DNA from: Pseudomonadota bacterium
Lineage (GTDB): Bacteria; Pseudomonadota; Gammaproteobacteria; BMS3Bbin11
NCBI GenBank assembly: GCA_034659075.1
Contig: JAYEGM010000005.1
Span: 1-54,910, forward strand
Direction: 5' to 3'
Length of the DNA: 54,910 nucleotides
Notes under the pieces: generated by a model
The model's input: the letters and a program-made list of their open reading frames with translations, nothing else
Told to the model about the DNA's origin: nothing
Database searches by the model: none
Made by a program: the position numbers and the translations under genes
Shown: positions 3,160 to 18,411 of the stretch, piece by piece
How positions within the stretch are numbered: the first letter of the stretch is position 1
How the letters are laid out: every line of letters begins with the position of its first letter

Positions 3160-3894
3160 TTAGCCTAAACCCGATAATACCTGATGAAATACCCGCCGGC
3201 TATGCAGCGGTTTACCCGACAGCTGCCTGTCCAGCAGATAGCGAGTTAGCTGGCGACACTCTTTCAAACTGTCTTTGTCATTAAAATCATTATGGTAAAA
3301 ATCCAGTAAACTTTTCCCCTTAATGAATATGCTCTGCACTTCAGGATGGTACTCCTGCACGCTTTGTGAGAGAGGGCGCGGCCCTTGCTCAGGAACATAC
3401 TGATACCGGGCTTCGGCGACAACCGGTCGGGATGATCCCGCTTCGTGGTGCAGAATCAATCCATAACCACTCTGGCTCAGTAATTCTTTTTCAAAACGTC
3501 TTAGCGCATGTTGTATCGGAACACCCTGGTAAATTTCATCAAGACTCTTGCTATAAAAATCGAACAGGTTTTCATGTGCATCATGCCGATGCAATAATTT
3601 CAGCAATAATTCATTCAGGTAAAAAGCCGCGTATCTTTGTTCAGATGTCAGCTCCCTGGCGCAACCTGAGGCTTCAATCCCGGTAAGCAGGGGCAATTCC
3701 CCTTTACCACTCCAGCCAAGTAGTAGCGACTGAAAAGGCATAACCAGGGCACGTTTACGGGACTTTGGGTTTCTAACGCCACGGGCAAGTAAACCTGCCC
3801 GGCCGTATTGCCGGGTAAAAACTTCAATAATCAGGCTGGTCTCACGAAAGGGTCGGGCATGCAACAGAAAAGCCGGCTGGGACTGTACCCTCAT
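3160..3894 (-). CDS. recO: DNA repair protein RecO
   Basis: AFLLHARPFRETSL, FYLNELL motifs; era-recO-pdxJ order. Confidence 0.95.
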   Translation of the reverse strand: MRVQSQPAFLLHARPFRETSLIIEVFTRQYGRAGLLARGVRNPKSRKRALVMPFQSLLLGWSGKGELPLLTGIEASGCARELTSEQRYAAFYLNELLLKLLHRHDAHENLFDFYSKSLDEIYQGVPIQHALRRFEKELLSQSGYGLILHHEAGSSRPVVAEARYQYVPEQGPRPLSQSVQEYHPEVQSIFIKGKSLLDFYHNDFNDKDSLKECRQLTRYLLDRQLSGKPLHSRRVFHQVLSGLG

Positions 3895-4790
3895 TCTTCC
3901 TCGATATATCCAATCGAGCGCAACATTACTGCATCATCAGACCAATTCTCTCTCACTTTCACCCAGAGCTGAAGAAAAACTTTTCGATTAAAATATGACT
4001 CCAGCTCCTCTCTGGCATGCGTACCGACGGTACGCAACTTCTCACCTTTCTTGCCAATGATTATGCCTTTCTGACTGTCTTTCTCTACCCAGATTATGGC
4101 ATCCGCCCGTATCAGTTCGTCTGCCATCTCCAATTGCTGGATTTCTACGGCTAGGGCATAAGGAATTTCATTGTGCAGCTGGCGAAAAAGTTTCTCTCTT
4201 ATCGTTTCTGAAATAATAAATCGGGCACCTTTATCTGTCGTCTGCCCTTCAGGAAACAACAGAGGGCTTTCTGGAAGATACTCAGGTAAAACATTCAATA
4301 ATGACTGAACATTGCTTCCATCGCTGGCCGAGAGGGGAACAATTGCCTTGAAATCATGCAGCTGTGAAGAAAATTCAATTAACGGCAGCAGCTGGTTCTT
4401 ATTTTTTAATTTATCAATTTTGTTAATCAACAAAATAAGGGTAGCATTTTCCTGCTGCGCAAGCTTCAAGGCATAGCGATCCTCTTCCTTCCAGCCTTCC
4501 GATGTAATCATCAGCAGCGTAACATCAACACCCATCAGGGCATTCGCAGCAGTCTTATTCATGATCTGGTTGATATAGCGTTTACTGCCAAGATGCACGC
4601 CTGGCGTATCAACAAAAATCATCTGGTATTCTTCTGTTGTACTGATACCCAGTAAACGGTGTCGGGTAGTCTGTGGCTTAGAAGATGTAATACTGATTTT
4701 CTTGCCTATGATGCGGTTCAATAACGTCGACTTGCCGACATTTGGCCGACCCAGTATGGCAATGAAACCTGCACGGAAACCTTTTGTCAT
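3891..4790 (-). CDS. era: GTPase Era
   Basis: GRPNVGKS, DTPG, NKID and C-terminal KH domain (IIIGKKG). Confidence 0.97.
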   Translation of the reverse strand: MTKGFRAGFIAILGRPNVGKSTLLNRIIGKKISITSSKPQTTRHRLLGISTTEEYQMIFVDTPGVHLGSKRYINQIMNKTAANALMGVDVTLLMITSEGWKEEDRYALKLAQQENATLILLINKIDKLKNKNQLLPLIEFSSQLHDFKAIVPLSASDGSNVQSLLNVLPEYLPESPLLFPEGQTTDKGARFIISETIREKLFRQLHNEIPYALAVEIQQLEMADELIRADAIIWVEKDSQKGIIIGKKGEKLRTVGTHAREELESYFNRKVFLQLWVKVRENWSDDAVMLRSIGYIEEE

Positions 4791-5494
4791 CGTCCTGAAT
4801 ATCCTGACATAGCCTGCAGAGCCTTTTCAGCAGAATCCTGTTCTGCCTTGCGACGGCTGGCGCCCTGCCCATGGAACACCCGCCTGCCCTCAGCTATCAG
4901 ACATTGCACTTTGAATGACTGCTTGTGTGGAGGACCACTTACATCAAGAACTGTATATTCCGGGAGTGCCTGTGATCTTTGCTGTAAATGTTCCTGCAAG
5001 CGGGTTTTCGGGTCTTTTAAGATATTATCGGGTTCACATAATGCAAGCCTGTCGGCAAACATTCTATTGATAAATAGCCGGCATGGCTGAATCCCTCCAT
5101 CATAGTAGATGGCACCGATAATCGCCTCTATGACGTCAGAAAGAATGGAGTCTCGTGCCTGGTCACCGCTTTTAAGTGCGCCGGGACCCAGAATAAGATA
5201 CCTGCCAAGATCTAATTCTCTGCCCAGTTCTGCCAGTGTTCCCTGCCTGACGAGGCTTGCACGCAGTCGGGTCAATTGTCCTTCATCTGCCGCTGGAAAC
5301 CTTTCGCAAATAATATCTGCAATGATAAACCCGAGCAGGCTGTCACCAAGGAATTCCAGTCTTTCATAGTTATCCGAGCCGTGACTTCTATGGGTTAATG
5401 CACGTATTAACAGTTCTGGCCTGGAATTAAAATCATAGCCCAGTGACTTCTGAAGTCTCTGTATATTTTCATCATTTAAGCGAGACTTCGACAC
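4787..5494 (-). CDS. rnc: Ribonuclease III
   Basis: NYERLEFLGDS signature and dsRBD (DPKTRLQE...AEQ); exact start uncertain. Confidence 0.96.
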   Translation of the reverse strand: MSKSRLNDENIQRLQKSLGYDFNSRPELLIRALTHRSHGSDNYERLEFLGDSLLGFIIADIICERFPAADEGQLTRLRASLVRQGTLAELGRELDLGRYLILGPGALKSGDQARDSILSDVIEAIIGAIYYDGGIQPCRLFINRMFADRLALCEPDNILKDPKTRLQEHLQQRSQALPEYTVLDVSGPPHKQSFKVQCLIAEGRRVFHGQGASRRKAEQDSAEKALQAMSGYSGR

Positions 5495-5861
5495 TATTCT
5501 CGAAATCCAGCAATGCGCTGATATTGTATGCCATGGGGATTACCCGCTCGTAATCGACACTTATCACCTTGATATTTTTTATTTTTGTAATTTGCAGTGC
5601 CTCATTCAGGTCAAGCAAATCTGCTGCCATATCGATATAAAGAGTGTCACTTATTTTTTGCAACATCTGACGACGGGTCCAGCTTCCAACACCCGGTTGT
5701 TCCGCAAGGGATTCAAGCGCATGTGCAACCTTGTTGTTATCGAGATATGCAGGGACCAGTTTCATTGTAACCAGAGCAAAAAGAACAAACAGAGCTGCCC
5801 CGCCGAGCAGGCCCCACATTGATGCCCCTTTCTGATTGCTGCTACGTTTAATATTTTCCAT
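5472..5861 (-). CDS. DUF4845-like membrane-anchored protein
   Basis: QKGASMWG pilin-like N-terminus with TM helix; usual position between lepB and rnc. Confidence 0.75.
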   Translation of the reverse strand: MENIKRSSNQKGASMWGLLGGAALFVLFALVTMKLVPAYLDNNKVAHALESLAEQPGVGSWTRRQMLQKISDTLYIDMAADLLDLNEALQITKIKNIKVISVDYERVIPMAYNISALLDFENSVEVSLK

Positions 5862-5891
5862 CTGCTTCTCCTTCAGGCAAAAGTTGATCAG

Positions 5892-6695
5892 TTATTTTTT
5901 ATTCGCGTTCAGCATAGTACCAATTCTGGACCAGTTAACGCCACCGCCATTAGACCAGTCCCATGAGAACCAGATGAAAAATGCCTTGCCGACCACATTT
6001 TTGTCCGGCACGAAGCCCCAGTAGCGACTGTCATTACTATAGTTCCGATTGTCGCCCATAACAAAATACTGACCTTGCGGGACATCAAACTTCATTATTT
6101 GAGAACTGCCTCGGCGGGGATCAATCAGTATATCATGCTTCACATTTACCAGATCCTCCTTTAACTTATTCAGCGATAGCTTTCGACTGACGCCATTCCT
6201 GAACTCGTAATTTCCATCTGCCTGTTGCGGCATCAGTTCACCATTGATATAAAGTTTTTCAGCCTTGTATTCAATTTTATCCCCGGGCAGCCCGATCACT
6301 CTTTTAACGAAATGCATTTTGGGATCATGAGGGAAACGAAACACCATAATATCCCCTCTATCGGGATCAGATACAGAGACAACTTTTTCGTTAAGTACCG
6401 GTAACCTGATGCCATAGCTGAACTTATTCACCAGAATAAAATCACCAACATTTAATGTAGGCAGCATTGAACCGGACGGAATTCTGAATGGCTCGGCTAT
6501 AAATGAACGCAAAACGAAAACGATCAGGATAACCGGAAAAAACGCCTTGGCGTATTCAACAAGTAAAGGATCTCTGGTGAGTTCTCCTGCCTGCTGGTTC
6601 CTGCCAGCTCTTTTGCCGGAAAAGAAGACTGCATCAAGTAACCAGATGGCACCTGTAGCCAATAGCGCGATTAAGAGTATTAATGAAAAATCCAT
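5892..6695 (-). CDS. lepB: Signal peptidase I
   Basis: EPFRIPSGSMLPTL, VKRVIGLPGD, MGDNR.YS.DSR motifs. Confidence 0.97.
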   Translation of the reverse strand: MDFSLILLIALLATGAIWLLDAVFFSGKRAGRNQQAGELTRDPLLVEYAKAFFPVILIVFVLRSFIAEPFRIPSGSMLPTLNVGDFILVNKFSYGIRLPVLNEKVVSVSDPDRGDIMVFRFPHDPKMHFVKRVIGLPGDKIEYKAEKLYINGELMPQQADGNYEFRNGVSRKLSLNKLKEDLVNVKHDILIDPRRGSSQIMKFDVPQGQYFVMGDNRNYSNDSRYWGFVPDKNVVGKAFFIWFSWDWSNGGGVNWSRIGTMLNANKK

Positions 6696-6698
6696 GTT

Positions 6699-6966
6699 TA
6701 GTGCTCCCTCAAGGAAGTATTGGTGGGTTCAGTTGGTTTGTCAGTGTTCAGGGCAAGACCCGCCTCGAAGCGAATGGCCATAGTCCTTTGCAAGAGGCAG
6801 AACGCAGCCATGAGGCTGACAAACCAACCCTTCGGGCGTTCCTGTGGTGTCCCGCAGCGGCGTTGCAGTACTTGACAAAGGACATTGCCATTGCCCGCAC
6901 ACTGCGTCTTGCTGCAAAACACCACAGGAACGCTGCACCCATCAATACTTCCTTGACGGAGCACTA
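6699..6966. mobile_element. 268-bp TA-flanked non-autonomous fold-back element (MITE/ERIC-like), copy A
   Basis: 34-bp terminal inverted repeats 6699-6732/6933-6966 (3 mismatches), TA at both ends, internal stems 6732-6744/6816-6828 and 6836-6850/6919-6933. Confidence 0.8.
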
Positions 6967-8772
6967 GTCCTCCGAGACCTTTAATACTGCAAGAAAGGCT
7001 TCCTGAGGGATTTCCACTGAGCCGATCTGTTTCATTCGTTTTTTACCTGCTTTCTGTTTTTCCAGTAACTTGCGTTTCCGGGTTATATCACCACCATAAC
7101 ATTTTGCCGTTACATTCTTCCTTAGGGCCTTGACAGTTTCTCTAGCGATAATCTTACCGCCAATTGCAGCCTGTATGGCGATGTCAAACATCTGCCTGGG
7201 AATAATCTCACGCATCGCTTTTATTAGTTCACGACCGCGATACGGAGCATTGCTTTTGTGTACGATGACAGAAAGCGGCCCTACCCTTTCTCCGTTGATT
7301 AAGACATCAACCCTGACGACATCGGCCGCTCTGAATTCCAGAAACTCATAATCCATCGAAGCATAACCGCGGCTAACTGACTTCAAACGGTCAAAGAAAT
7401 CCAGCACCACTTCACTCATGGGCAGTTCATAGGTCAACATAACCTGACGACCAAGATACTGCATATCCTTTTGCACACCACGTTTATCATTACAAAGTTT
7501 CATCACACTGCCAACATATTCCTGCGGCATCAATAAGTGAGCAACGATGACGGGCTCTCTGATTTCCTCAATCAACGAAATATCCGGTAAGCGTGCGGGA
7601 TTATCAACATGGACTATTTCCTGCTTTTTAGTCAGGACTTCGTAAATAACTGTCGGCGCAGTCGTAATGAGATCGAGATCATACTCTCTTTCCAGTCGCT
7701 CCTGAATAATTTCCATATGCAGCATGCCAAGAAAACCGCAGCGGAAACCATGTCCCAATGCATCAGAATTTTCCGGCTCGAAATAGAGTGAGGCATCATT
7801 CAGGCTAAGCTTCTCCAGCGCATCACGAAAGCCATGATAATCACCTGAACTTACTGGGTATAAACCTGAAAACACGCGAGGCTGAGATTCTTTGAAGCCA
7901 GCCAGTGCTTTATCAGTCGGGCGATCACGTAGCGTTACAGTGTCGCCGACCCGCGCACTGCGGATATCCTTGATGCCAGCAACCATGAAACCAACTTCAC
8001 CACAACGCAAGATGTCTGTCTCGGTGCGTTTTGGAGTAAAGACACCGACAGTATCGACAATGTATTCACTTCCGGTCGCCATCAGCCGAACCCGGTCTTT
8101 TTTCTTAAGTTCGCCATCAACAATTCGGATCAGAGAGACAGTGCCAAGGTAATTATCAAACCAGGAGTCGATTATCAGGGCTTTTAACGGTGCATCCGGG
8201 TTCCCTGTCGGGGATGGAAGATCGCGAACAATGGCTTCCAGCACTTCTTTTACACCTAAACCGCTCTTGGCACTGGTTTCGACTGCCGCCGAGGCATCGA
8301 TACCGATAACATCCTCAATTTCAGCTCGTACCCGGTCAGGCTCAGCAGCAGGCAAATCAATCTTATTCAGCACAGGTACCACTTCAAGACCGATATCGAC
8401 AGCTGTATAGCAGTTTGCAACAGTCTGGGCTTCCACACCCTGTGCTGCATCAACAATCAGCAGAGCCCCTTCACAGGCCGTCAGAGAACGTGACACTTCA
8501 TAAGAAAAGTCAACGTGACCGGGTGTATCAATAAGATTTAACTGGTATGTCTGACCATCATCAGCATGGTAATCGAGACGAACACTCTGTGCCTTGATGG
8601 TAATACCTCGCTCACGCTCGATATCCATCGAATCCAGCACCTGATCATTCATCTCACGTTCTGTTAAGCCACCGCATAGCTGAATGAATCGATCGGCCAG
8701 GGTAGATTTACCGTGATCGATATGAGCGATTATCGAGAAGTTTCTGATGTGGTCTGTCGCAGACTCATGCAC
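6964..8772 (-). CDS. lepA: Elongation factor 4 (LepA)
   Basis: [38 protein letters not shown]; start probably GTG 8772 or ATG 8787 rather than the track start at 8823. Confidence 0.96.
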
Positions 8773-8820
8773 GCGGCAGGTCCCCATAAATAAAAAATGG
8801 AAATTATACGCTATTGAAGG

Positions 8821-8849
8821 CACCGAGAGGAAAGTGATTCCTCTCGGTG
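8821..8849. terminator. Stem-loop between degP and lepA (possible terminator or processing hairpin)
   Basis: Perfect 12-bp stem CACCGAGAGGAA/TTCCTCTCGGTG with 5-nt loop; U-tract on the coding strand is weak. Confidence 0.5.
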
Positions 8850-8857
8850 GAGTTTTA

Positions 8858-10282
8858 TTATGGCTTTAGCACAAGAAATTGAGACCCTTTGCCGCGCCTC
8901 ACCAGAACCGCTGCAGGCACCCCTTTCTCCAGTGATTCAGCAATAGACTTGTATGAACTGCCATTTATGACCTTTTTCTTGTTCAGTAGTAGCACTACAT
9001 CACCTTTTTTGATGCCGGCCTTTGCCGCTGCTGAGTTTGCTTTAAGTTGTATAACAAGCACACCATAACCCAGATCCAGCTGCTTCTTCTCCTCTTTGGA
9101 TAAATCCCGAACATTCATACCGAGCAAGCCTGATGTGTCGTTTTTCAAATCAGGGCTTTTCAATCCCAAAGCAGCTGTGTCTGAATCCGGCAGCTGACCA
9201 ATCGTTACTTTTACCTGCCGCGATTTTCCCCCACGCATAACTTTTATATCAGCAGTTGTCCCTACTTTTGTGCGTCCGACAAAAAATGGCAGGTCAGAAG
9301 AACGCCTGACGGGTTTACCATTATATTCAACGATTACATCCTGTACCTGCAGCTCTGATTTTGATGCCGGACTATCCGGCAGTATAGATGAAACCAGGGC
9401 ACCAAAGGGCTTGTCCATATCAAGTGCTTCAGCCAGTTCACGATTAACATCCTGAATGGTAACGCCAAGCCAGCCGCGTCTAACTTTCCCACCATTACGC
9501 AGCTGATCGGCAACCTGCATCACCAGATCGATAGGAACAGAAAATGCCAGCCCCATGTAACCACCTGAGCGGCTGTATATCTGGGCATTGATCCCAACAA
9601 CCTCACCATCCATGTTGAATAATGGGCCACCCGAGTTGCCCGGGTTTATGGCCACATCTGATTGAATAAAGGGGATATAATTTTCGTTTGGCAGGCTGCG
9701 GCCCTTGGCAGAGACAATTCCCGCTGTGGCGGTATTCTCAAAACCAAAGGGTGAACCGATTGCCAGCACCCATTCCCCAACTTTCAGTTCATCAGGCTTG
9801 CCTATCTTCAAGTACGGTAGATCTTTAGCGTCGACTTTTAATAAAGTAACGTCACTCCGTTTATCACTACCGATTACTTTTGCCAGCATTTCCCGCCTGT
9901 CTGTCATGCGGACAATAATTTCATCAGCATTCTCGACCACATGAGCGGAAGTCAGTACATAACCATCTGCAGAAATAATAAAACCTGATCCCAGAGACCT
10001 GACGTCGGGTTGCGGATCTGTGCCATGTGGAGATTGTGGTAGCTGACCAAAAAACTTTTCAAAAAAATCATGGAAAGGGCTATCTTCCGGGATCTCAGGC
10101 ATCTGCAACTCACCGTTGCCTAATATTGATGATTTCGCCTTTTGTTTAGTACTGATATTAACGACAGCCTTACCCTGCTCCTCGACCAGATCTACAAAAT
10201 CAGGTAAAGAATTTGCGTGAGCTATAACTGACATAGATGAAGTCATCAGCAATAGAAAGGGTAACATTAGTAATTTTTTCAT
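8858..10282 (-). CDS. degP: DegP/MucD-family periplasmic serine endoprotease with two PDZ domains
   Basis: [24 protein letters not shown]; signal peptide MKKLLML at 10282 with GAGG RBS; follows rseC. Confidence 0.9.
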
Positions 10283-10350
10283 GTGTTGATCCTCGGAACT
10301 GCTAAAAAGTATAGATAAATGAAGCAAAATAAAAAACGGAAAGCTCAGGC

Positions 10351-10806
10351 TTAATTTCGATCAAGCAGCACCGGCTGGAACAATGTCGAAAAATAGCTGG
10401 ATCTTACAACTCGACTGGTGATTAAAAACGTCAGCAAAGCACTTCCCAATCCAGATAATATAGCGGCAAAGTCACCGTTTTCAATACCAGCACCGTGTGC
10501 AATTGCTTCGCCTGTAATTGCACCAAGAACCAGCATAAGCAAGGGAAACAGATAGATCATTAGCGAAGAAAATACCAAAGCCATTCTGTTCAGGCCGATA
10601 GTCACCTGATCTCCTGGCTTCGCATTGATAGAATTCTTTGCAATCAGCAGACGTGGCTTGTTGCCAAACAAGGGTTTCAACAATGCCGTACCGCACATGC
10701 CATTGGATGCACAGGACTGGCAGCCTGTTTGCAGCAGAGGGGTAATACTTGCATTATTATCCTGTAAAGAGACGACAAGGCCCTGTTCTTCAACCAGATC
10801 CATCAC
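10351..10806 (-). CDS. rseC: RseC/MucC family protein
   Basis: CQSC...CG motif plus two TM helices; position in rpoE operon. Confidence 0.88.
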   Translation of the reverse strand: MMDLVEEQGLVVSLQDNNASITPLLQTGCQSCASNGMCGTALLKPLFGNKPRLLIAKNSINAKPGDQVTIGLNRMALVFSSLMIYLFPLLMLVLGAITGEAIAHGAGIENGDFAAILSGLGSALLTFLITSRVVRSSYFSTLFQPVLLDRN

Positions 10807-10807
10807 T

Positions 10808-11770
10808 TCAATGCCTTGTTACCAGGGCATCACCAATTACCTTAACAGTGGCAGATGGGACTTCACCGATAGCTGTAATCAGGTAATCATCGATAACCCG
10901 TGTATAGGAATTCACCGCTCCCATTTGATCAAGACCGGTTCCAGATGCAGGGTTGCTCATTTTTTCGATAAATACCGATACTCCAGCCAGGCCATCACTT
11001 AAAATCATATGTTCAAATGGCTCAGCATCCATGGGTATGGAACGCTGAATTATATTGACCAGCCGGTAACCCGCCGGTAGTGCAGAAAACTGCCACTGCG
11101 AATCTTTGACAGGTGTGTTGACGGGTGGCTGCTTGTTGCTATGCCATTCAAGTGCGTCATTATCCGTCATGGGTAACAATGCAGATTCAGGGATGTCGCC
11201 ACCAATTTCTATCAGGGCAAACATATACTGCTCAATGACATTTTCGGCATTGTCTATCAGGGCAGATTTTAACAATAGGCCAGTCTCCTGATCAGCCCAT
11301 AAGTCATAGCCATACCGGAGACCGTCGCGCGGAAGGATCTGCAACCGTGTTACGCTTCTGTCTGCAATCCTGTCAATGCCATCTGTAGAAATTTGATAAT
11401 TATTCACCAGAGCTGCAAGATTTTTGACCATAAAACCCGGGAAGCCGGTCGCTTTGTCGGAACGCAGTCCTGCATGGCCCATTTTCATTTCAGGCATGAA
11501 ACACCACACCCTTTCAGCATCCCTGATGACCTCACGAGGAACACCGTTTAAAGCATACAGACGCTCGCGGACAGAACCATCCTGAATCTTGTGTATGACA
11601 CGCAGAGTATGGATATGCTTCTCATCAACGTACAGAAAAACGCCATCATAGTTGACACTGTTCACGGCTTGATTCATTTTCTTTAACAAGTCCATGCTCT
11701 GGTCCTGTGCCTGGGCACAGGAAACCATGGCCAGGTTAACCAGCAGCAGAAAAAACAGCGTCAATTTCAT
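10808..11770 (-). CDS. rseB: Sigma-E regulatory protein RseB/MucB
   Basis: NYDGVF, LNGVPREVIR, SDGLAGVSVFIE, AIGEVP motifs. Confidence 0.92.
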   Translation of the reverse strand: MKLTLFFLLLVNLAMVSCAQAQDQSMDLLKKMNQAVNSVNYDGVFLYVDEKHIHTLRVIHKIQDGSVRERLYALNGVPREVIRDAERVWCFMPEMKMGHAGLRSDKATGFPGFMVKNLAALVNNYQISTDGIDRIADRSVTRLQILPRDGLRYGYDLWADQETGLLLKSALIDNAENVIEQYMFALIEIGGDIPESALLPMTDNDALEWHSNKQPPVNTPVKDSQWQFSALPAGYRLVNIIQRSIPMDAEPFEHMILSDGLAGVSVFIEKMSNPASGTGLDQMGAVNSYTRVIDDYLITAIGEVPSATVKVIGDALVTRH

Positions 11771-12363
11771 TAATGTGAGTCGGTACTAGGGTTATATCCC
11801 ACAAAACGTGAATAGGACCAAATGCCCGTCATGTCACTTGCAGGATTATATTCATTGTGCTCAACCAGCAGCCTGTTGATTCGTTCACGTATATTCTGGT
11901 TTTTGCTATTGGCTACAATCAGCTCATATTCCTGATTTTCCCCGGCCGGGCCATCCTGAGCCGGTAGAGGTGTTACAATTTTGGAAAGTGTGGCAACTGT
12001 AGAAGGCTGATTTTCTCCTGCACCATTCAGCACGGGTTTCTGCAGTAATATAGCAATACCAAGCAGTGATGCAGCAACCGCAAGACCGACTAGCGGTCCG
12101 CGCATCCGTTTGCGTTTAGCCAGCGAGGCCGGCGCAAGTTGAACCGGTTCATTTGCCAGAGCCAGTAGCACTTTTCCGCTAAAATCAGCAGAGATGGCTG
12201 GAGACAACTCATCACGCATGGCCGTTCCATAGATATTAAACCGCCGCCACAGTGCGCGAAGTTCAATGTCCTCGTTCAGCTGCCTGATCAACTGTTCGGA
12301 TTCTTCCTGATCCAGTTCACCATCTAAAAAATATGATACGTTCTCTTTCATCTCATCTCTCAC
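11770..12363 (-). CDS. rseA: Anti-sigma-E factor RseA/MucA
   Basis: ENVSYFLDGEL...WRRF N-domain, single TM (LAVAAS); follows rpoE. Confidence 0.88.
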   Translation of the reverse strand: MRDEMKENVSYFLDGELDQEESEQLIRQLNEDIELRALWRRFNIYGTAMRDELSPAISADFSGKVLLALANEPVQLAPASLAKRKRMRGPLVGLAVAASLLGIAILLQKPVLNGAGENQPSTVATLSKIVTPLPAQDGPAGENQEYELIVANSKNQNIRERINRLLVEHNEYNPASDMTGIWSYSRFVGYNPSTDSH

Positions 12364-12935
12364 TCGAGCAACGGTTTCAATTCCCGGTCTATAGCATCAC
12401 GTGCCCTGAATATCCTCGACCGGACTGTTCCTATTGGACAGTCCATGACTTCTGCAATTTCATCATAGGACAAGCCTTCGATTTCGCGTAAGGTAATTGC
12501 CATTTTCAAGTCCTCAGGCAATTGTTCTACCGCACGCGTCACCGTCTCCGCCAGCTCCTTTGTTAATGCATTGGCTTCCGGGGTTCCTGTTTCCCGCATT
12601 GCTGCGCCGCCTTCTAACTGAACCGCATCTTCAGCATCAATATCTGTTTTCGGTGGTCTTCGCCCCTGTGAAATCAGATAGTTCTTTGCAGTGTTAACTG
12701 CAATCCGGTAAAGCCAGGTATAGAACGCACTTTCACCACGAAAATTACCAATCGCACGATAAGCCTTGATCAGTGCTTCCTGGCAAACATCTTCCACTTC
12801 AGCACTGTCATAAATATATCGACTAACCAACTTGGCCAGGCGGTGCTGATATTTTTCTACCAGCAAACCAAAAGCCGCCTGATCACCCTGCTGAGTCTTT
12901 CTGACCAGCACTATGTCCGGTGTTTCTTCAGACAT
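12360..12935 (-). CDS. rpoE: RNA polymerase sigma-E factor
   Basis: AFYTWLYRIAVNTAKNYL, MDCPIGTVRSRIFRAR. Confidence 0.97.
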   Translation of the reverse strand: MSEETPDIVLVRKTQQGDQAAFGLLVEKYQHRLAKLVSRYIYDSAEVEDVCQEALIKAYRAIGNFRGESAFYTWLYRIAVNTAKNYLISQGRRPPKTDIDAEDAVQLEGGAAMRETGTPEANALTKELAETVTRAVEQLPEDLKMAITLREIEGLSYDEIAEVMDCPIGTVRSRIFRARDAIDRELKPLLE

Positions 12936-12991
12936 GTGTAAAGCCGCGCCTGTCGTTCAGCCTGTATATATCAGACATTTGTACTATCAAC

Positions 12992-13018
12992 TGTGACATT
13001 ATTCTTCTATAAAAGTTC
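12992..13018 (-). promoter_or_regulatory. Putative sigma-E-dependent autoregulatory promoter of rpoE
   Basis: Minus strand GAACTT-N16-TCACA, close to the sigma-E consensus, about 55 nt upstream of rpoE. Confidence 0.65.
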
Positions 13019-13309
13019 TATTTTCCATCCAGATATTCAGATCATTTATCACAACTGAATTTTCTGAGTTATTTCCATATAATAATTCGCATATACTATA
13101 GCATGCAGCGGACTAACAGTAATGGTGGTGCCTAAAATCCGGAAAATCATCTGATGTACATTGTTATTCATAGGCCTGCCATAACAAGCTACGGTCGCAC
13201 GCTGGCTTAATGATATGCTGCAGAAAGGCCGGCGCTCCTGATAATATCAATACAATTGTGAGGCCCTAAAATCGATGCTGGACAGGGTTATAATCAACAA
13301 CTAAAAGAT

Positions 13310-14932
13310 ATGAGTAGTAATGAGATGGCAAGTAAACACTTTGATGTTCTGATAATTGGCAGTGGCCTGGCCGGTCTCGGCCTGGCTTTGCGGCTAGCAG
13401 ACAAGGCTTCGGTTGCTGTCGTCTCAAAAGGCGAACTGCATGAGGGCTCCAGTTATTATGCTCAGGGCGGCGTCGCCGCCGTATTGGGTGACAATGATTC
13501 CATACAATCACATAAACAGGATACCCTGGATGCCGGCGCGGGGCTTTGCGACCCGGCATGCGTTGATTACGTCATCAAACATGGCCCTGAAAATATTCAA
13601 TGGCTAATAGATCAGGGCGTTGGCTTCAGTCTCGATATAGATGGCCGGCAATACCATCTGACCCGGGAGGGAGGACACAGTCATCGACGTGTCATTCACG
13701 CAGCAGATGCTACAGGCAAGGCCATAGAAGCCACTCTGGAGCAGGAAACACGCAATCACCCCAACATCCATCTATTTGAACACGCTATCGCCATCGATTT
13801 AATTACCAGCAGCAAGCGGGATGACTCGAAAAACCGCTGCCTGGGTGCCTACATTCTAAATCAGCAAGACGGCGGAATAATGTCTGTCAGTGCCGCCAAT
13901 ACAGTACTGGCAACAGGTGGCGCCTCTAAAGTGTATCTCTATACCAGCAACCCTGATACATCGACAGGCGACGGCATTGCCATGGCCTGGCGTGCGGGCT
14001 GCCGGGTTGCCAATATGGAGTTTGTACAATTTCACCCAACCTGCCTCTATCACCCGGAAGCAAAATCATTTCTGATCTCAGAGGCACTGCGCGGAGAAGG
14101 TGCGTATTTATTACTGCCGGATGGGACGCGGTTCATGGAGCGACACGATAAAAAAGCTGAAATGGCTCCCCGCGACATCGTTGCTCGTGCCATTGACTAT
14201 GAAATGAAGAAAGGTGGCCTGGATTCAGTCTATCTTGATATCAGCCATCGTAGCCACGATTTTATAATCGAACATTTCCCGACCATCTATGCTCGTTGCC
14301 TGAAATTCGGCATGGACATCACCACCGGCCCCATCCCGGTCGTACCAGCGGCACACTATACCTGCGGCGGTGTAGTGACTGATCTTAACGGCAGAACAGA
14401 CGTCGATGATCTGTATGCTATAGGTGAATGCACCTGCACCGGCCTGCACGGTGCAAACCGTCTGGCAAGCAACTCATTGCTGGAATGCCTGGTCTTTTCT
14501 CAATCTGCCAGCCATTCTATATTAGAAAGTCTTGAGCAAGCCCCTTCGCCCCATCCCGAGCTGCCTCAATGGGATGAAAGCCAGGTCACTGACCCGGATG
14601 AACAGGTGGTGGTCTCACATAACTGGGATGAGTTGCGCCGCTTCATGTGGGACTATGTCGGCATCGTTAGAACCAACAAACGCCTGCAGCGCGCGCAGAA
14701 CCGTATAGAACTGCTGGCAGATGAAATTGAGGAGTTCTACAGCCGTTTCAAAGTAGACAATAACCTGCTTGAATTACGCAATCTGGCTGTCATTGCCGAC
14801 CTGACAATACGCAGCGCCCAATCGCGCAAGGAAAGCCGTGGCCTGCATTTTACGCGTGACTACCCGGAAATTGATCCTGAACTGGCGCAAGTTAACACCA
14901 CATTGATTCCCGACAACTACTCAAAGGATTAA
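13310..14932 (+). CDS. nadB: L-aspartate oxidase
   Basis: [38 protein letters not shown]; divergent from rpoE as is typical. Confidence 0.96.
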
Positions 14933-15025
14933 GGGACATTGAAAGAGTGAGCTGAACCGTCAAGACGCTGAGAACTATAAAAGATGGCCTGTGCCCTGTA
15001 TTCAAACTGGTTAAGAATCCCCTGG

Positions 15026-15457
15026 TTAACCATTCAAATACACAACCAGTCGCCTGAAAGACAGGCTGTTTATAGAGTCTGCTGCGTACAGCAATGAATG
15101 CTGTTTCGAATCAGGCAGTGTCCTGATTTTTAAAACTATCAGCCAGCGGCTAACAAAGCTTTCCAGTACATTTGCCTCCTGCCAGCCTGAGCTTTCATTA
15201 TTCTGGAAAAATAGCGGTTCACCCTGCTGCAGACTTAGTCCATGGCTGATGGACCTTTCGGAGATAATGTACTGGCGTAAGCTGAAGGTTATCAAGACAG
15301 CGGTAATCAACAGCAACAAAAGATTGAGCTCAACAAAAAACAGCAACAGAAAAGCTGCCATATGCAGACAGCAAACTAGACGTATAAGCAGCCGTGATCT
15401 AGTCGGGTGGATGACTACCCGACTGCCGCATTCTGGTGACGATGTTATAGACTTCAT
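15026..15457 (-). CDS. YgfX-like inner-membrane protein
   Basis: Two TM helices, C-terminal DS....FRRL motif, directly downstream of sdhE; ATG 15457 has GGAGG RBS. Confidence 0.65.
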   Translation of the reverse strand: MKSITSSPECGSRVVIHPTRSRLLIRLVCCLHMAAFLLLFFVELNLLLLLITAVLITFSLRQYIISERSISHGLSLQQGEPLFFQNNESSGWQEANVLESFVSRWLIVLKIRTLPDSKQHSLLYAADSINSLSFRRLVVYLNG

Positions 15458-15656
15458 AGTCGGCCTCCCTGCCTTCAAAAAGCCATTCCTGTAACTGCTG
15501 GTCTGAGCAACTCAGCAGGGTCTCTAACTCGGCTTTAAGACTATTATCCAGGCTCTGCCAATGTTGATCAACAAAACGATTCAGAATCACATCCAGTTCT
15601 AACATGCCACGCCGGCATTGCCAGCGCAATCGCCCCGGTGCCTGGTCCAGAGTCAT
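15399..15656 (-). CDS. sdhE: FAD assembly factor SdhE
   Basis: RLRWQCRRGMLELD signature. Confidence 0.93.
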   Translation of the reverse strand: MTLDQAPGRLRWQCRRGMLELDVILNRFVDQHWQSLDNSLKAELETLLSCSDQQLQEWLFEGREADYEVYNIVTRMRQSGSHPPD

Positions 15657-16357
15657 GTTGCTCGCTTAAGCAGCATTTTTCGTATGTTGTGGATGGCCTC
15701 TGCAGGATTTAGATCTCTGGGGCAGACCTCAACACAGTTCATGATGCTGTGACAACGGAACAGTCGAAATGGATCTTCCAGTTCATTAAGACGTTTACTC
15801 GTTGCCTTGTCCCTGGTATCAACTAGGAAACGGTAGGCCTGCAGCAATGCCGCAGGGCCAAGGTACTTGTCCGGATTCCACCAGAACGACGGACATGCCG
15901 TTGAACAGCAGCCACAGAGGATGCATTCGTAAAGTCCGTCCAGCTTCCTCCTGTCCTCGTCCGATTGCAAACGCTCGATTTCCGGCTCCGGTTCATCGTT
16001 TATTAACCAGGGCTTTATAGTCCGGTACTGTCGGTAAAAAGGTTCCATATCCACTATCAGATCCCGGATTACCGGCATGCCTGGCAGCGGGTTCAGCTTA
16101 ATCGGCTGCTTTAATGAACTCAAAGGTGTAATACAGGCCAGTCCATTGCGCCCGTTAATATTCATCGCATCCGATCCACAAACACCTTCACGACAGGATC
16201 GACGAAAGGACAGGCTTTCATCCTGTTCTTTCAGTAACAGGATGGCATCAAGCAGCATTTGCCGGCCTTCGAGTCTGGACTCATCCAGCTGGTAGTCCTG
16301 CATATAAGGCTTGCCATCCTTATCCGGATCAAAGCGGTAGATGGAGAAACGAATCAT
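15653..16357 (-). CDS. sdhB: Succinate dehydrogenase iron-sulfur subunit
   Basis: SCREGVCGSD, CILCGCCSTACP, CHSIMNCVEVCP; start set at ATG 16357 (GAGGG RBS) because the track start lies inside the inserted element. Confidence 0.95.
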   Translation of the reverse strand: MIRFSIYRFDPDKDGKPYMQDYQLDESRLEGRQMLLDAILLLKEQDESLSFRRSCREGVCGSDAMNINGRNGLACITPLSSLKQPIKLNPLPGMPVIRDLIVDMEPFYRQYRTIKPWLINDEPEPEIERLQSDEDRRKLDGLYECILCGCCSTACPSFWWNPDKYLGPAALLQAYRFLVDTRDKATSKRLNELEDPFRLFRCHSIMNCVEVCPRDLNPAEAIHNIRKMLLKRAT

Positions 16358-16374
16358 CTTAGTAGCCCTCATCT

Positions 16375-16641
16375 TAGTGTAGTGTTTCATATTATTTGAC
16401 GATTAAGCGTGACGAGAAACCGTTAGCTACAAGGCAGGTTTTGCAGTAAATGGTTGCTCCCTTTGCAAGGAAGCTAACGCCGTAGGTGACGGTTTCTCGC
16501 CGCGCCCGAAGGGAGACCCACAAATAGCTCAATACGGTGTTGCAGTATTTGCCAGGGGAATTACCATTGCCTGCAAACTGCGCCTTGTCTTGAACCATTT
16601 GAGGGCCTCTTAATCGCCAAATAATATGAAACACTACACTA
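16375..16641. mobile_element. 267-bp TA-flanked non-autonomous fold-back element (MITE/ERIC-like), copy B
   Basis: 33-bp terminal inverted repeats 16375-16407/16609-16641 (1 mismatch), TA ends, two internal hairpin modules separated by CCCGAAGGG. Confidence 0.8.
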
Positions 16642-18411
16642 ATAAACCCTCTTGACCGGCGGAAAAGAGTCGACACTGAGAGGTTGTGTGCGTACCGGCT
16701 TGTAGTCCAGAACGCCATCCTCACGATTAAAATACAGGGTATGTTTCATCCACTCGCGATCATCACGATCCGGGTAGTCCAGCCGCGAATGTGCGCCTCG
16801 ACTTTCTGTGCGTGCTGCTGCAGACAACATAGTGGCCATCGATACTTCGAGTTGATTCTCAAGTTCAAAGGCCTCAAATCGTGCAGTATTGAATATCTTG
16901 CTCTGATCACCCAGTCGAACATTGGACAGACGGGCAACCAGTGCACGGATCTTTTCAACACCTTCATCAAGTACTTCCTGTGTACGAAATACGCCGCAAT
17001 ACTGCTCCATCAAAGTACGCATCTGGTTCGTCATATCAGCAACAGATTCGCCTTCTCCTTTTTTATCCCAGCGCAGGATATGGCTCATTGCCTGCTCTAT
17101 CGACGCATCACTGAGCGGCGTATGAAAGCGGTTATCTGCCAGGTAGTCGATAATATGATTACCCGCCGCACGGCCGAACACAACGATATCGAGCAGGGAA
17201 TTCCCACCCAGACGGTTCGCCCCGTGTACGGATACACAGGCGCATTCGCCAATGGCATAAAGTCCCTGCTGTGGCTCTTCCGGCGCATGGCGCAGTGGTG
17301 CTACCACCTGCCCCATTCTATTGGTTGGTATACCCCCCATGGTGTAATGTGCTGTCGGAAATACTGGAATCGGGGCATCTACCGGATCAACACCGGTAAA
17401 ACGGATCGACATATCGCGGATACCCGGTAATCGGTTTTTCACAATGTCCGGGTCGAGGTGAGTGAGCTGCAGCAGCACATGATCGGCATTTTCTCCACAA
17501 CCTCTGCCTTCGCGTATTTCAGTGGCAATGGCCCGGGAGACAACGTCGCGTGAGGCCAGGTCAAGGGCGTGCGGGGCATAGCGTTTCATGAATCGCTCAC
17601 CGTCATTATTAATCAGGTAACCGCCCTCACCCCTTGTCGCTTCAGAAATCAACATACCCAGGCCTGCTATACCAGTAGGATGAAACTGTACAAACTCCAT
17701 GTCCTGCAGAGGCAAGCCTGCGCGCAGGGCCATCGCCATGCCGTCGCCGGTATTGATCATGGCATTGGTGCTGGTACGGAAAATTCGTGCCGAGCCACCG
17801 GTAGCTAACATGGTTGTCTTGGCTTCAATAATCAATGGCTCGCCGGACTCGATATCAATTACCATCGCACCCTGTGTCACGCCATCCTCAGACAGCAGCA
17901 AATCCGTTGCAAAATATTCGTCAAAAAAATGGGTTTGTAAACGCAAATTCTGCTGATAAAGGGATTGCAGAATGGCATGGCCGGTACGGTCTGCAGCAGC
18001 ACAGGTACGTGCGGCCTGATCGCCACCATAGTTCTGGCTTTGGCCACCAAATGGGCGCTGGTAAATACGCCCATTGTCGAGCCGGGTAAAAGGAACGCCA
18101 AAATGTTCAAGCTCGATGACCAGACGTGAAGCAGCTCGACACATGTACTCAATGGCATCCTGATCACCTAGAAAATCACTGCCTTTAACCGTGTCGTACA
18201 TATGCCAGTGCCAGTTGTCCGGCGTGACATTACCCAGCGCGGCATTCATGCCGCCCTGCGCGGCAACGGTGTGCGAACGGGTAGGAAAGACTTTTGACAC
18301 CACCGCTACGTGCAAATCTGCCTGAGCCAGTTGCAGTGCGGCACGTAGGCCCGCACCACCTGCACCAATCACCAGACAGTCGAAGCGTCTTTTTTCTACA
18401 CCATTACTCAT
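16639..18411 (-). CDS. sdhA: Succinate dehydrogenase flavoprotein subunit
   Basis: GAGGAG, RSHTVAAQGG FAD-His motif, HGANRLGGNSL. Confidence 0.97.
   Translation of the reverse strand: MSNGVEKRRFDCLVIGAGGAGLRAALQLAQADLHVAVVSKVFPTRSHTVAAQGGMNAALGNVTPDNWHWHMYDTVKGSDFLGDQDAIEYMCRAASRLVIELEHFGVPFTRLDNGRIYQRPFGGQSQNYGGDQAARTCAAADRTGHAILQSLYQQNLRLQTHFFDEYFATDLLLSEDGVTQGAMVIDIESGEPLIIEAKTTMLATGGSARIFRTSTNAMINTGDGMAMALRAGLPLQDMEFVQFHPTGIAGLGMLISEATRGEGGYLINNDGERFMKRYAPHALDLASRDVVSRAIATEIREGRGCGENADHVLLQLTHLDPDIVKNRLPGIRDMSIRFTGVDPVDAPIPVFPTAHYTMGGIPTNRMGQVVAPLRHAPEEPQQGLYAIGECACVSVHGANRLGGNSLLDIVVFGRAAGNHIIDYLADNRFHTPLSDASIEQAMSHILRWDKKGEGESVADMTNQMRTLMEQYCGVFRTQEVLDEGVEKIRALVARLSNVRLGDQSKIFNTARFEAFELENQLEVSMATMLSAAARTESRGAHSRLDYPDRDDREWMKHTLYFNREDGVLDYKPVRTQPLSVDSFPPVKRVY

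Follow-up and report, generated by a model that had tools for sequence, protein, structure and literature searches.

Correia elements (CREE/NEMIS) are non-coding transposable elements of the miniature, inverted-repeat type (MITEs) which form a hairpin, carry a TAGTG tip, are flanked by TA and duplicate this dinucleotide on insertion. We know of no transposase for them. Their length is about 104-157 bp (PMC3184786, Table 1), they carry a 26-bp terminal repeat, tatagtggattaac... (PMC5039591), their hairpins in mRNA are cut by RNase III (PMC10969869), and two reviews, in the sections consulted, list them for Neisseria only and name no Correia transposase (PMC10969869, PMC3184786). Structure also maintains the hairpin-forming REPIN/RAYT populations, which make up long-lived lineages and for which vertical maintenance has been described (bioRxiv 10.1101/2021.07.10.451892). 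Here we report on two fold-back elements, E1 (positions 6699-6966) and E2 (16375-16641), found in a window of 54,910 nucleotides, contig JAYEGM010000005.1 of a Pseudomonadota bacterium (assembly GCA_034659075.1; genome G000 below). The evidence makes it likely that E1 and E2 represent two subfamilies of a non-autonomous, TA-inserting MITE and that they are two-armed members of a Correia-like superfamily in Pseudomonadota.

E1 and E2 have a common plan, consisting of TA flanks, a 34-bp terminal stem, two inverted hairpin arms of ~100 nt and, at the centre, CCCTTCGGG (E1) or CCCGAAGGG (E2); within the arms, stems of 13-24 nt were detected as well. A first-pass annotation, made from the sequence alone, had proposed this double-module anatomy, and its coordinates were correct, as nhmmer found the four modules again at exactly the core positions given in Table 1. 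The single strand folds as a Y with two arms, with a minimum free energy of -150.5 kcal/mol for E1 and -129.5 kcal/mol for E2 and folding z-scores of -11.2 and -13.5, respectively, and none of 200 shuffled sequences was as stable. The order within a module is stem, CAAGGC, a variable 7-bp stem, GCAG, the AATGG..CCCTT tip, CAAG, AACGC(C) and stem. E1 and E2 share this plan but mostly not the sequence of their stems, the invariant columns being the TAGTG tip, T22, T23, G24 and G27, and the core motifs. A TTGAYG motif had also been noted at offset 22-27; it is present in three of the four terminal arms, the E1 left arm having TTGGTG.

Conservation of the fold was evident at two scales. A structure-blind MAFFT alignment of 13 arms revealed compensatory changes in 29 of the 36 pairs. 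Among 74 arms from many genomes, standard pairs occupied 94.8% of the pair cells as compared with 60.8% after shuffling, a value that none of 500 shuffles reached, although it must be considered, as a point against our interpretation, that the alignment used for these pair counts was fitted to the covariance model R1, which favours pairing. When the partners were slid, 34-43% of the cells in the 74 arms were paired; double changes were found in 35 of the 36 pairs, and the unpaired motifs CAAGGC, GCAG, AATGG..CCCTT, CAAG and AACGC were at or near fixation. Every helix is compensatorily maintained and the loop motifs are fixed, which upholds the earlier view of a double-module family conserved in structure rather than in sequence. 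When the same arms were read in module orientation, 241 cells held G-U or U-G and 45 held A-C or C-A, indicating that the fold of one strand is favoured and not a mere symmetry of the duplex. With more copies in existence (see below) and such strong covariation, the E1/E2 feature is real and far beyond chance.

The closest known thing is Correia, not ERIC. R1, built from 13 arms of this genome only, was compared with 17 loci of Neisseria-type Correia elements, retrieved from viral contigs by means of the repeat given in PMC5039591 (Methods), and matched 12 places with E values from 2e-9 to 3e-3, spanning model positions 1-101 in each. The whole short Correia element aligned to a single arm of E1/E2; the order of CAAGGC, GCAG, CAAG and AACGC(C) and the helices agree, and the Correia terminal repeat stands in place of the arm stem. 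Conversely, a Correia-only model (R2), obtained from four short Neisseria Correia elements and run with filters off on the window plus six loci, gave as its ten best matches this genome's arms (E 3e-7 to 0.07). One module thus corresponds to a whole short Correia element, which makes E1 and E2 two-armed members of a superfamily extending across Pseudomonadota, and, each arm being a Correia relative, the Correia repeat would belong to a far wider, structure-defined family. There are clear differences too. The 26-bp Correia repeat is missing from E1 and E2, only the TAGTG tip being common, and the outer repeats are subfamily-specific. Correia elements have one hairpin unit, whereas E1 and E2 reach 267-268 bp with two inverted modules, a clamp at the centre and, in addition, an outer stem of 34 bp; the apical hairpins are also unlike, and the hosts are Neisseria in one case and marine and soil Pseudomonadota in the other. 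What is new here is the two-module variant, the Correia-type module being of a kind already known. A literature search, which did not extend to supplementary lists where such clusters may appear, found no description of a Correia-like family outside Neisseria.

An affinity to ERIC had been suggested at first but was not supported: R1 gave no match (E up to 1) in the genome of E. coli K-12 (NC_000913), which carries ERIC copies, in a search with stricter filters under which a weak ERIC likeness could remain, whereas Correia was matched in both search directions. ERIC/IRU sequences are also TA-flanked imperfect palindromes located inside transcription units (PMC3184786), but their size (127-bp consensus) and core are unlike those of E1 and E2. 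Rfam gave no match at the gathering score within the window, and a permissive search returned only sub-threshold, microRNA-like chance matches. Of the refutation proposed in the first-pass annotation, a direct match to a described family with known mobilisation, one half applies: a match was found in Correia, the mobilisation of which has itself no known agent.

As had been suggested, the genome and its relatives were searched with the covariance model, and R1 found 43 modules in this genome, matched 9 of 10 congeners and gave 114 matches in congener G002, where adjacent arm pairs were arranged sense-then-antisense in 18 out of 18 cases. Thirteen of the 43 matches have the AATGG tip and the other 30 make up a single-module family of ~165 bp, with ends TA-AGGGCACCTCTATT.. 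and an AATAGC..GCTATT tip (e.g. C45:7492-7655, C142:4566-4730 and C58:16549-16712 of G000). Four ~165-bp copies (two on contig C251, one on C246 and one on C122) contain an apical-hairpin insert of ~50 nt, and long Correia elements likewise carry an insert in the apical hairpin. The model also matched 35 of 151 genomes of the class, sampled one per family (one of the 35, G127, is flagged unpublished), and 23 of 151 genomes of a phylum sample, in which matches outside the class were confined to one family (14 of the 36 genomes sampled from it). Named genomes, scanned for an exact pattern, gave at least 118 loci, and the matches listed include Stutzerimonas stutzeri, Pseudomonas carbonaria, Acinetobacter parvus, Shewanella carassii, Wenzhouxiangella and Thiodiazotropha. 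The same two-arm plan of 267 bp is found again in S. stutzeri, A. parvus, Cognaticolwellia and one genome with 67% GC, each with a different terminal repeat, and plasmids of Pseudomonas aeruginosa, Azotobacter and Halomonas carry the S. stutzeri type without annotation; a plasmid search with E2 gave no match. Nearly all subfamilies begin with TA followed by G. The idea that copies lack common terminal repeats did not hold, since E2-like copies are 87-98% identical across six genomes and only the subfamilies differ from one another.

Two further groups of elements were observed in this genome. In one of them, TAAGGAGCCTCTGATTAATT-type ends, shared with the ~165-bp single-module family, are paired only ~116 nt apart and enclose no R1 match (C110:144-280, C49:235-371, C51:16711-16847 and C57:2314-2450). 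The other is a third subfamily with ends TA-CTAAGCCGAACC.. (C60:12446-12712, C73:1765-2031 and C237:7409-7675), in the second arm of which the module is reduced (CAAGGC-ATCGG-AACGCC) and another hairpin follows it, indicating that arms can be swapped or reduced.

Comparison of filled and empty sites showed that E1 and E2 insert at TA, duplicate it in a Y-TA-R context, and are polymorphic in presence and absence between congeners and between close populations. The lepA|lepB site is empty in seven congeners, which read CATGTT-TA-GTCCTCC as compared with TA-element-TA here, and is filled in congener G003 at the same TA as E1. The sdhA|sdhB site is empty in four (G001, G005, G006 and G010), is occupied in G002 and G004 by another element, of 168 bp and with a single module, located in the TA of the same sdhA stop codon, and retains a 75-nt remnant in G007. 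Contigs from three public metagenome runs span both empty sites with a single TA, and one of these contigs differs at 8 of 563 flanking bases (98.6% identical). The base outside the TA was T or C at 121 of the 135 element ends in this genome, so that the target can be written as Y-TA-R, mostly TTAA. Two more E2-like copies are found on contig C111, one (C111a) between the ftsY stop and the ftsE start and the other (C111b) between an M16 peptidase gene and rsmD, and both sites are variably occupied in congeners. A composite transposon on C111 was considered and rejected, as the pair encloses ftsY, two M16 peptidase genes and rsmD, all of them housekeeping genes. Directly after the TA closing C111a there is a TAGTGTA identical to the element's own tip (L001 3322-3335, G000:C111), which may have remained from an earlier end or be due to chance. 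At ftsY|ftsE of G002 (G002:C16:21842-22325), a second double-module element appears either to interrupt an E2-like copy or to stand in tandem with it, with four model matches within 420 nt, which is likely a nested insertion.

According to the mechanism that we propose, each copy, with its two inverted ~100-nt hairpin modules, short GC-clamped loop and subfamily-specific 34-bp terminal stem, would offer the module as a cis-acting structure, read on one folded strand (single-stranded DNA or RNA) by a mobilising enzyme acting in trans, and selection would act on the replicating lineage and not on the host locus. A factor encoded elsewhere had already been postulated in the first-pass annotation, and two results agree with it: the bias towards the fold of one strand and the lack of a gene of the element's own, as in this genome no module with complementary outer stems was interrupted by 150-3500 nt and there were no pairs of terminal repeats at insertion-sequence distance.

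A number of observations weigh against this proposal and against the Correia relationship. R2 was weak on the E1 arms (E 0.9-2.5) and, in a filtered whole-genome search in which 150 of 957 candidates were scored, gave no match. As the mobilising enzyme was not found, we infer recognition of a folded strand rather than observe it. Duplication of TA in a YTAR context is typical of IS630-type DDE enzymes working on double-stranded DNA, so that a folded strand is not required, and cleavage by RNase III and translational coupling at E1 and E2, taken up below, are put forward as proposals. Finally, E1 and the copy at the same site in G003 differ at 13 of 267 positions as compared with 71 of 200 third codon positions in lepA and 101 of 200 in lepB, and the sdhA|sdhB element shows 0 differences in 168 positions between G002 and G004, with 24 of 100 third codon positions changed in sdhB; such likeness is not expected of an insertion that is purely selfish and decays neutrally.

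Among the alternatives, the one that survives best, although we regard it as rather unlikely, is an ordinary IS630/Tc1-mariner-type MITE, in which a DDE transposase, now lost or unassembled, binds the double-stranded ends and cuts and pastes at TA, the hairpin being a mere consequence of the inverted ends, with its palindromy maintained by conversion from one arm to the other. IS630 itself uses CTAG and duplicates TA, and IS630-derived MITEs share with E1 and E2 both the TA duplication and the Y-TA-R target; the conservation of the 34-bp ends within a subfamily, the TA+G start of nearly all subfamilies and the frequent loss of insertion sequences from metagenome-assembled genomes (MAGs) would also fit. 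However, the partner originally attributed to the elements is not where it would be expected. PF13358 (DDE_3) is absent from this genome, which is 98% complete, and we profiled 41 relatives, in which it had no match in 14 of the 16 that bear the element, including G002 (99% complete, 114 modules) and G040 (one contig, 62 matches), and was present in 10 of the 25 that are element-free; PF01609 (DDE_Tnp_1) is absent from this genome as well. Thus, this genome and most carriers lack a matching IS630-family element or DDE_3 gene. Moreover, terminal repeats that are wholly different between subfamilies while unpaired internal motifs are fixed do not suit an enzyme that binds the ends, and the excess of G-U over A-C cells is unexpected if only duplex DNA matters. 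Of the earlier interpretation as a whole, the structural double-module reading stands, and the attributions to ERIC and IS630 are not supported.

The likeness of same-site copies also bears on a second alternative, that the elements are domesticated structured RNAs, their fold, maintained by the host, being a signal for processing or coupling (such as an RNase III site) in transcripts of lepA-lepB-rnc-era and sdh. This we consider improbable. It would account for the far greater conservation of same-site copies than of neighbouring third codon positions, for the location of E1, E2 and C111a between co-transcribed genes (C111b lying between the M16 peptidase gene and rsmD) and for the position of E1 upstream of the RNase III gene itself, and the cleavage of Correia hairpins by RNase III offers a precedent. 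Nevertheless, E1 is missing in seven congeners and in the population with a 98.6% identical flank, and equally similar copies are found at unrelated sites. Of the differences between E1 and its G003 counterpart, nine fall at paired positions, six of which break the pair and none of which is compensated, arguing against selection for the fold in place. Single-module copies, in turn, keep no stable orientation to transcription: an apparent bias here (12 antisense, 2 sense) was discarded because it was not repeated in G002 (20 and 17), in counts made with crude longest-open-frame gene calls that left 18 of 32 copies uninformative in G000 and 41 of 78 in G002.

Other explanations for the same-site likeness are possible: repeated insertion, by lineages common to several species, at a small number of TA sites that are strongly preferred, old insertions kept by constraint or conversion together with frequent precise loss, or repeat collapse during MAG assembly. 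Occupancy was repeated at all four sites examined. The 13 E2-like copies from six genomes were 91.7% identical between genomes (69 pairs) and 92.0% within them (9 pairs), and the nearest relative of every one of the 13 was in another genome.

We give least credit to a REPIN-like system, with mobilisation of the element by a single-strand HUH (Y1) transposase of RAYT or IS200 type that recognises one strand of the module hairpin, since, even though the conservation of structure over sequence, the favoured strand, the copies of one subfamily as alike between species as within a genome and six Y1_Tnp matches in this genome (two in open frames of ~250 aa) make single-strand reading plausible for E1 and E2 too, Y1_Tnp is missing in 6 of the 16 carriers, among them the one-contig G040 (10 have it), and present in 16 of the 25 non-carriers, what flanks the Y1 genes in this genome is not the module but unrelated inverted repeats of their own, the elements are some ten times the length of a REP, and a symmetric, duplicated TA on both sides does not, to our knowledge, fit IS200/IS605 elements. 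In the three families to which the profiling was confined, DDE_3, DDE_Tnp_1 and Y1_Tnp, presence did not track the element. One 231-aa Y1_Tnp gene (IS200/RAYT-like) on contig C6 lies between the two arms of an inverted repeat of 34 nt that are 97% complementary and have no relation to the module (L084, G000:C6, 1371-1404 and 2169-2202), and may be a separate REP/RAYT-type system.

Both elements of the window lie between genes of presumed operons, E1 between lepA and lepB, upstream of rnc and era, and E2 between sdhA and sdhB (Table 1).

Table 1. Position of E1, E2, their parts and the adjoining genes in the 54,910-nucleotide window; genes were assigned by Pfam.
Feature	Position	Strand	Remarks
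E1, double-module fold-back MITE	6699..6966	.	268 bp, TA at both ends counted in
E1 left terminal repeat	6699..6732	+	34 nt, 91% complementary to 6933-6966
E1 left arm, sense module	6730..6830	+	core 6754-6805; R1 74.5 bits; nhmmer
E1 central CCCTTCGGG, closing loop of three-way junction	6828..6836	.	
E1 right arm, inverted module	6834..6935	-	core 6860-6911; R1 89.7 bits
E1 right terminal repeat	6933..6966	+	minus-strand 6966..6964 = TAG, present lepA stop codon
E2, double-module fold-back MITE	16375..16641	.	267 bp, TA at both ends counted in
E2 terminal arms	16374-16407 and 16609-16642		34 nt, 97% complementary
E2 left arm, sense module	16406..16506	+	core 16430-16480; R1 93 bits; R2 E 0.016
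E2 central CCCGAAGGG	16506..16514	.	
E2 right arm, inverted module	16511..16611	-	core 16537-16587; R1 89.7 bits; R2 E 2.5e-4
lepA	6964..8823	-	stop codon inside E1 terminus; Pfam GTP_EFTU and LepA_C
lepB (signal peptidase I)	5892..6695	-	ATG 3 nt past E1; Pfam Peptidase_S26
sdhA	16639..18411	-	stop TAG (16641..16639) inside E2 terminus; Pfam FAD_binding_2 and Succ_DH_flav_C
sdhB	15653..16357	-	conserved ATG 16357, 17 nt past E2; start placed via empty-site comparison; Pfam Fer2_3

At both sites the stop codon of the upstream gene is a TAG made up of the flanking TA and the first G of the element, and taking out the element together with one TA leaves a TAA stop close to the ribosome-binding site and ATG of the next gene. 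Copies would then be tolerated inside operons at the level of the host by a combination of features: the stop codon would be rebuilt by the TA and the first G, the Shine-Dalgarno of the next gene would be kept (E2) or substituted by the element end (E1, GAGGGAG), and the fold-back would bring stop and start codons together again. In mRNA, the 34-bp stem might be a substrate of RNase III, by analogy with Correia. E1 stands within the row lepA-lepB-rnc-era (window 3891-6966), so that, shortly upstream of the gene for RNase III, the presumed transcript would contain a double-stranded stem of 34 bp, which could couple this operon to RNase III activity; no RNA run was listed as containing the E1/E2 locus. 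A preference for stop codons was considered and is not claimed, since the 11 of 90 ends coinciding with the stop of a frame of at least 100 codons, as against 2.55% of random TAR sites, are about what a rough estimate gives for tolerated non-coding sites. A flank of E1, TAGTCCTCC, resembles the element's own end, TAGTGCTCC, but this likeness is absent at other copies and was treated as chance. E1 is open in frames of both strands (6683-6967, plus strand, 94 codons; 6698-6964, minus strand, 88 codons), and a longer sdhB frame, extendable to an ATG at 16390, enters E2; these open frames are probably due to chance, yet misleading for gene callers.

Taken further than the evidence presses, and as a tentative suggestion, Correia may be one branch of a set of structure-defined replicators spread over the Pseudomonadota, in which an enzyme that is neither IS630-like nor encoded by the element reads the ~100-nt hairpin on one strand and re-places copies at a few TA sites, notably the stop-start junctions of essential operons. 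If true, such repeated placement would explain the near-identical same-site copies in different species, and recovery of the enzyme from a carrier that can be cultured, for instance Stutzerimonas stutzeri, would likewise show how Correia elements move.

Three things give the finding its interest: how far the family reaches, the signature of a single favoured strand and the puzzle of the same-site copies. Clustering of MITEs by sequence reports genus-specific families (PMC11602168), and the present case indicates that deep MITE families missed in that way are found by a structure model. Essential operons can harbour insertions of 267 bp and apparently remain unbroken. Gene expression in Neisseria is shaped by Correia elements, and a conserved, covarying core of the same kind is shared by elements from roughly one in four of the families sampled in the class, easily grown bacteria included; the nucleotides that are fixed, as opposed to those that merely pair, offer a comparative handle on what movement requires in cis, and these bacteria provide tractable hosts in which to hunt for the enzyme.

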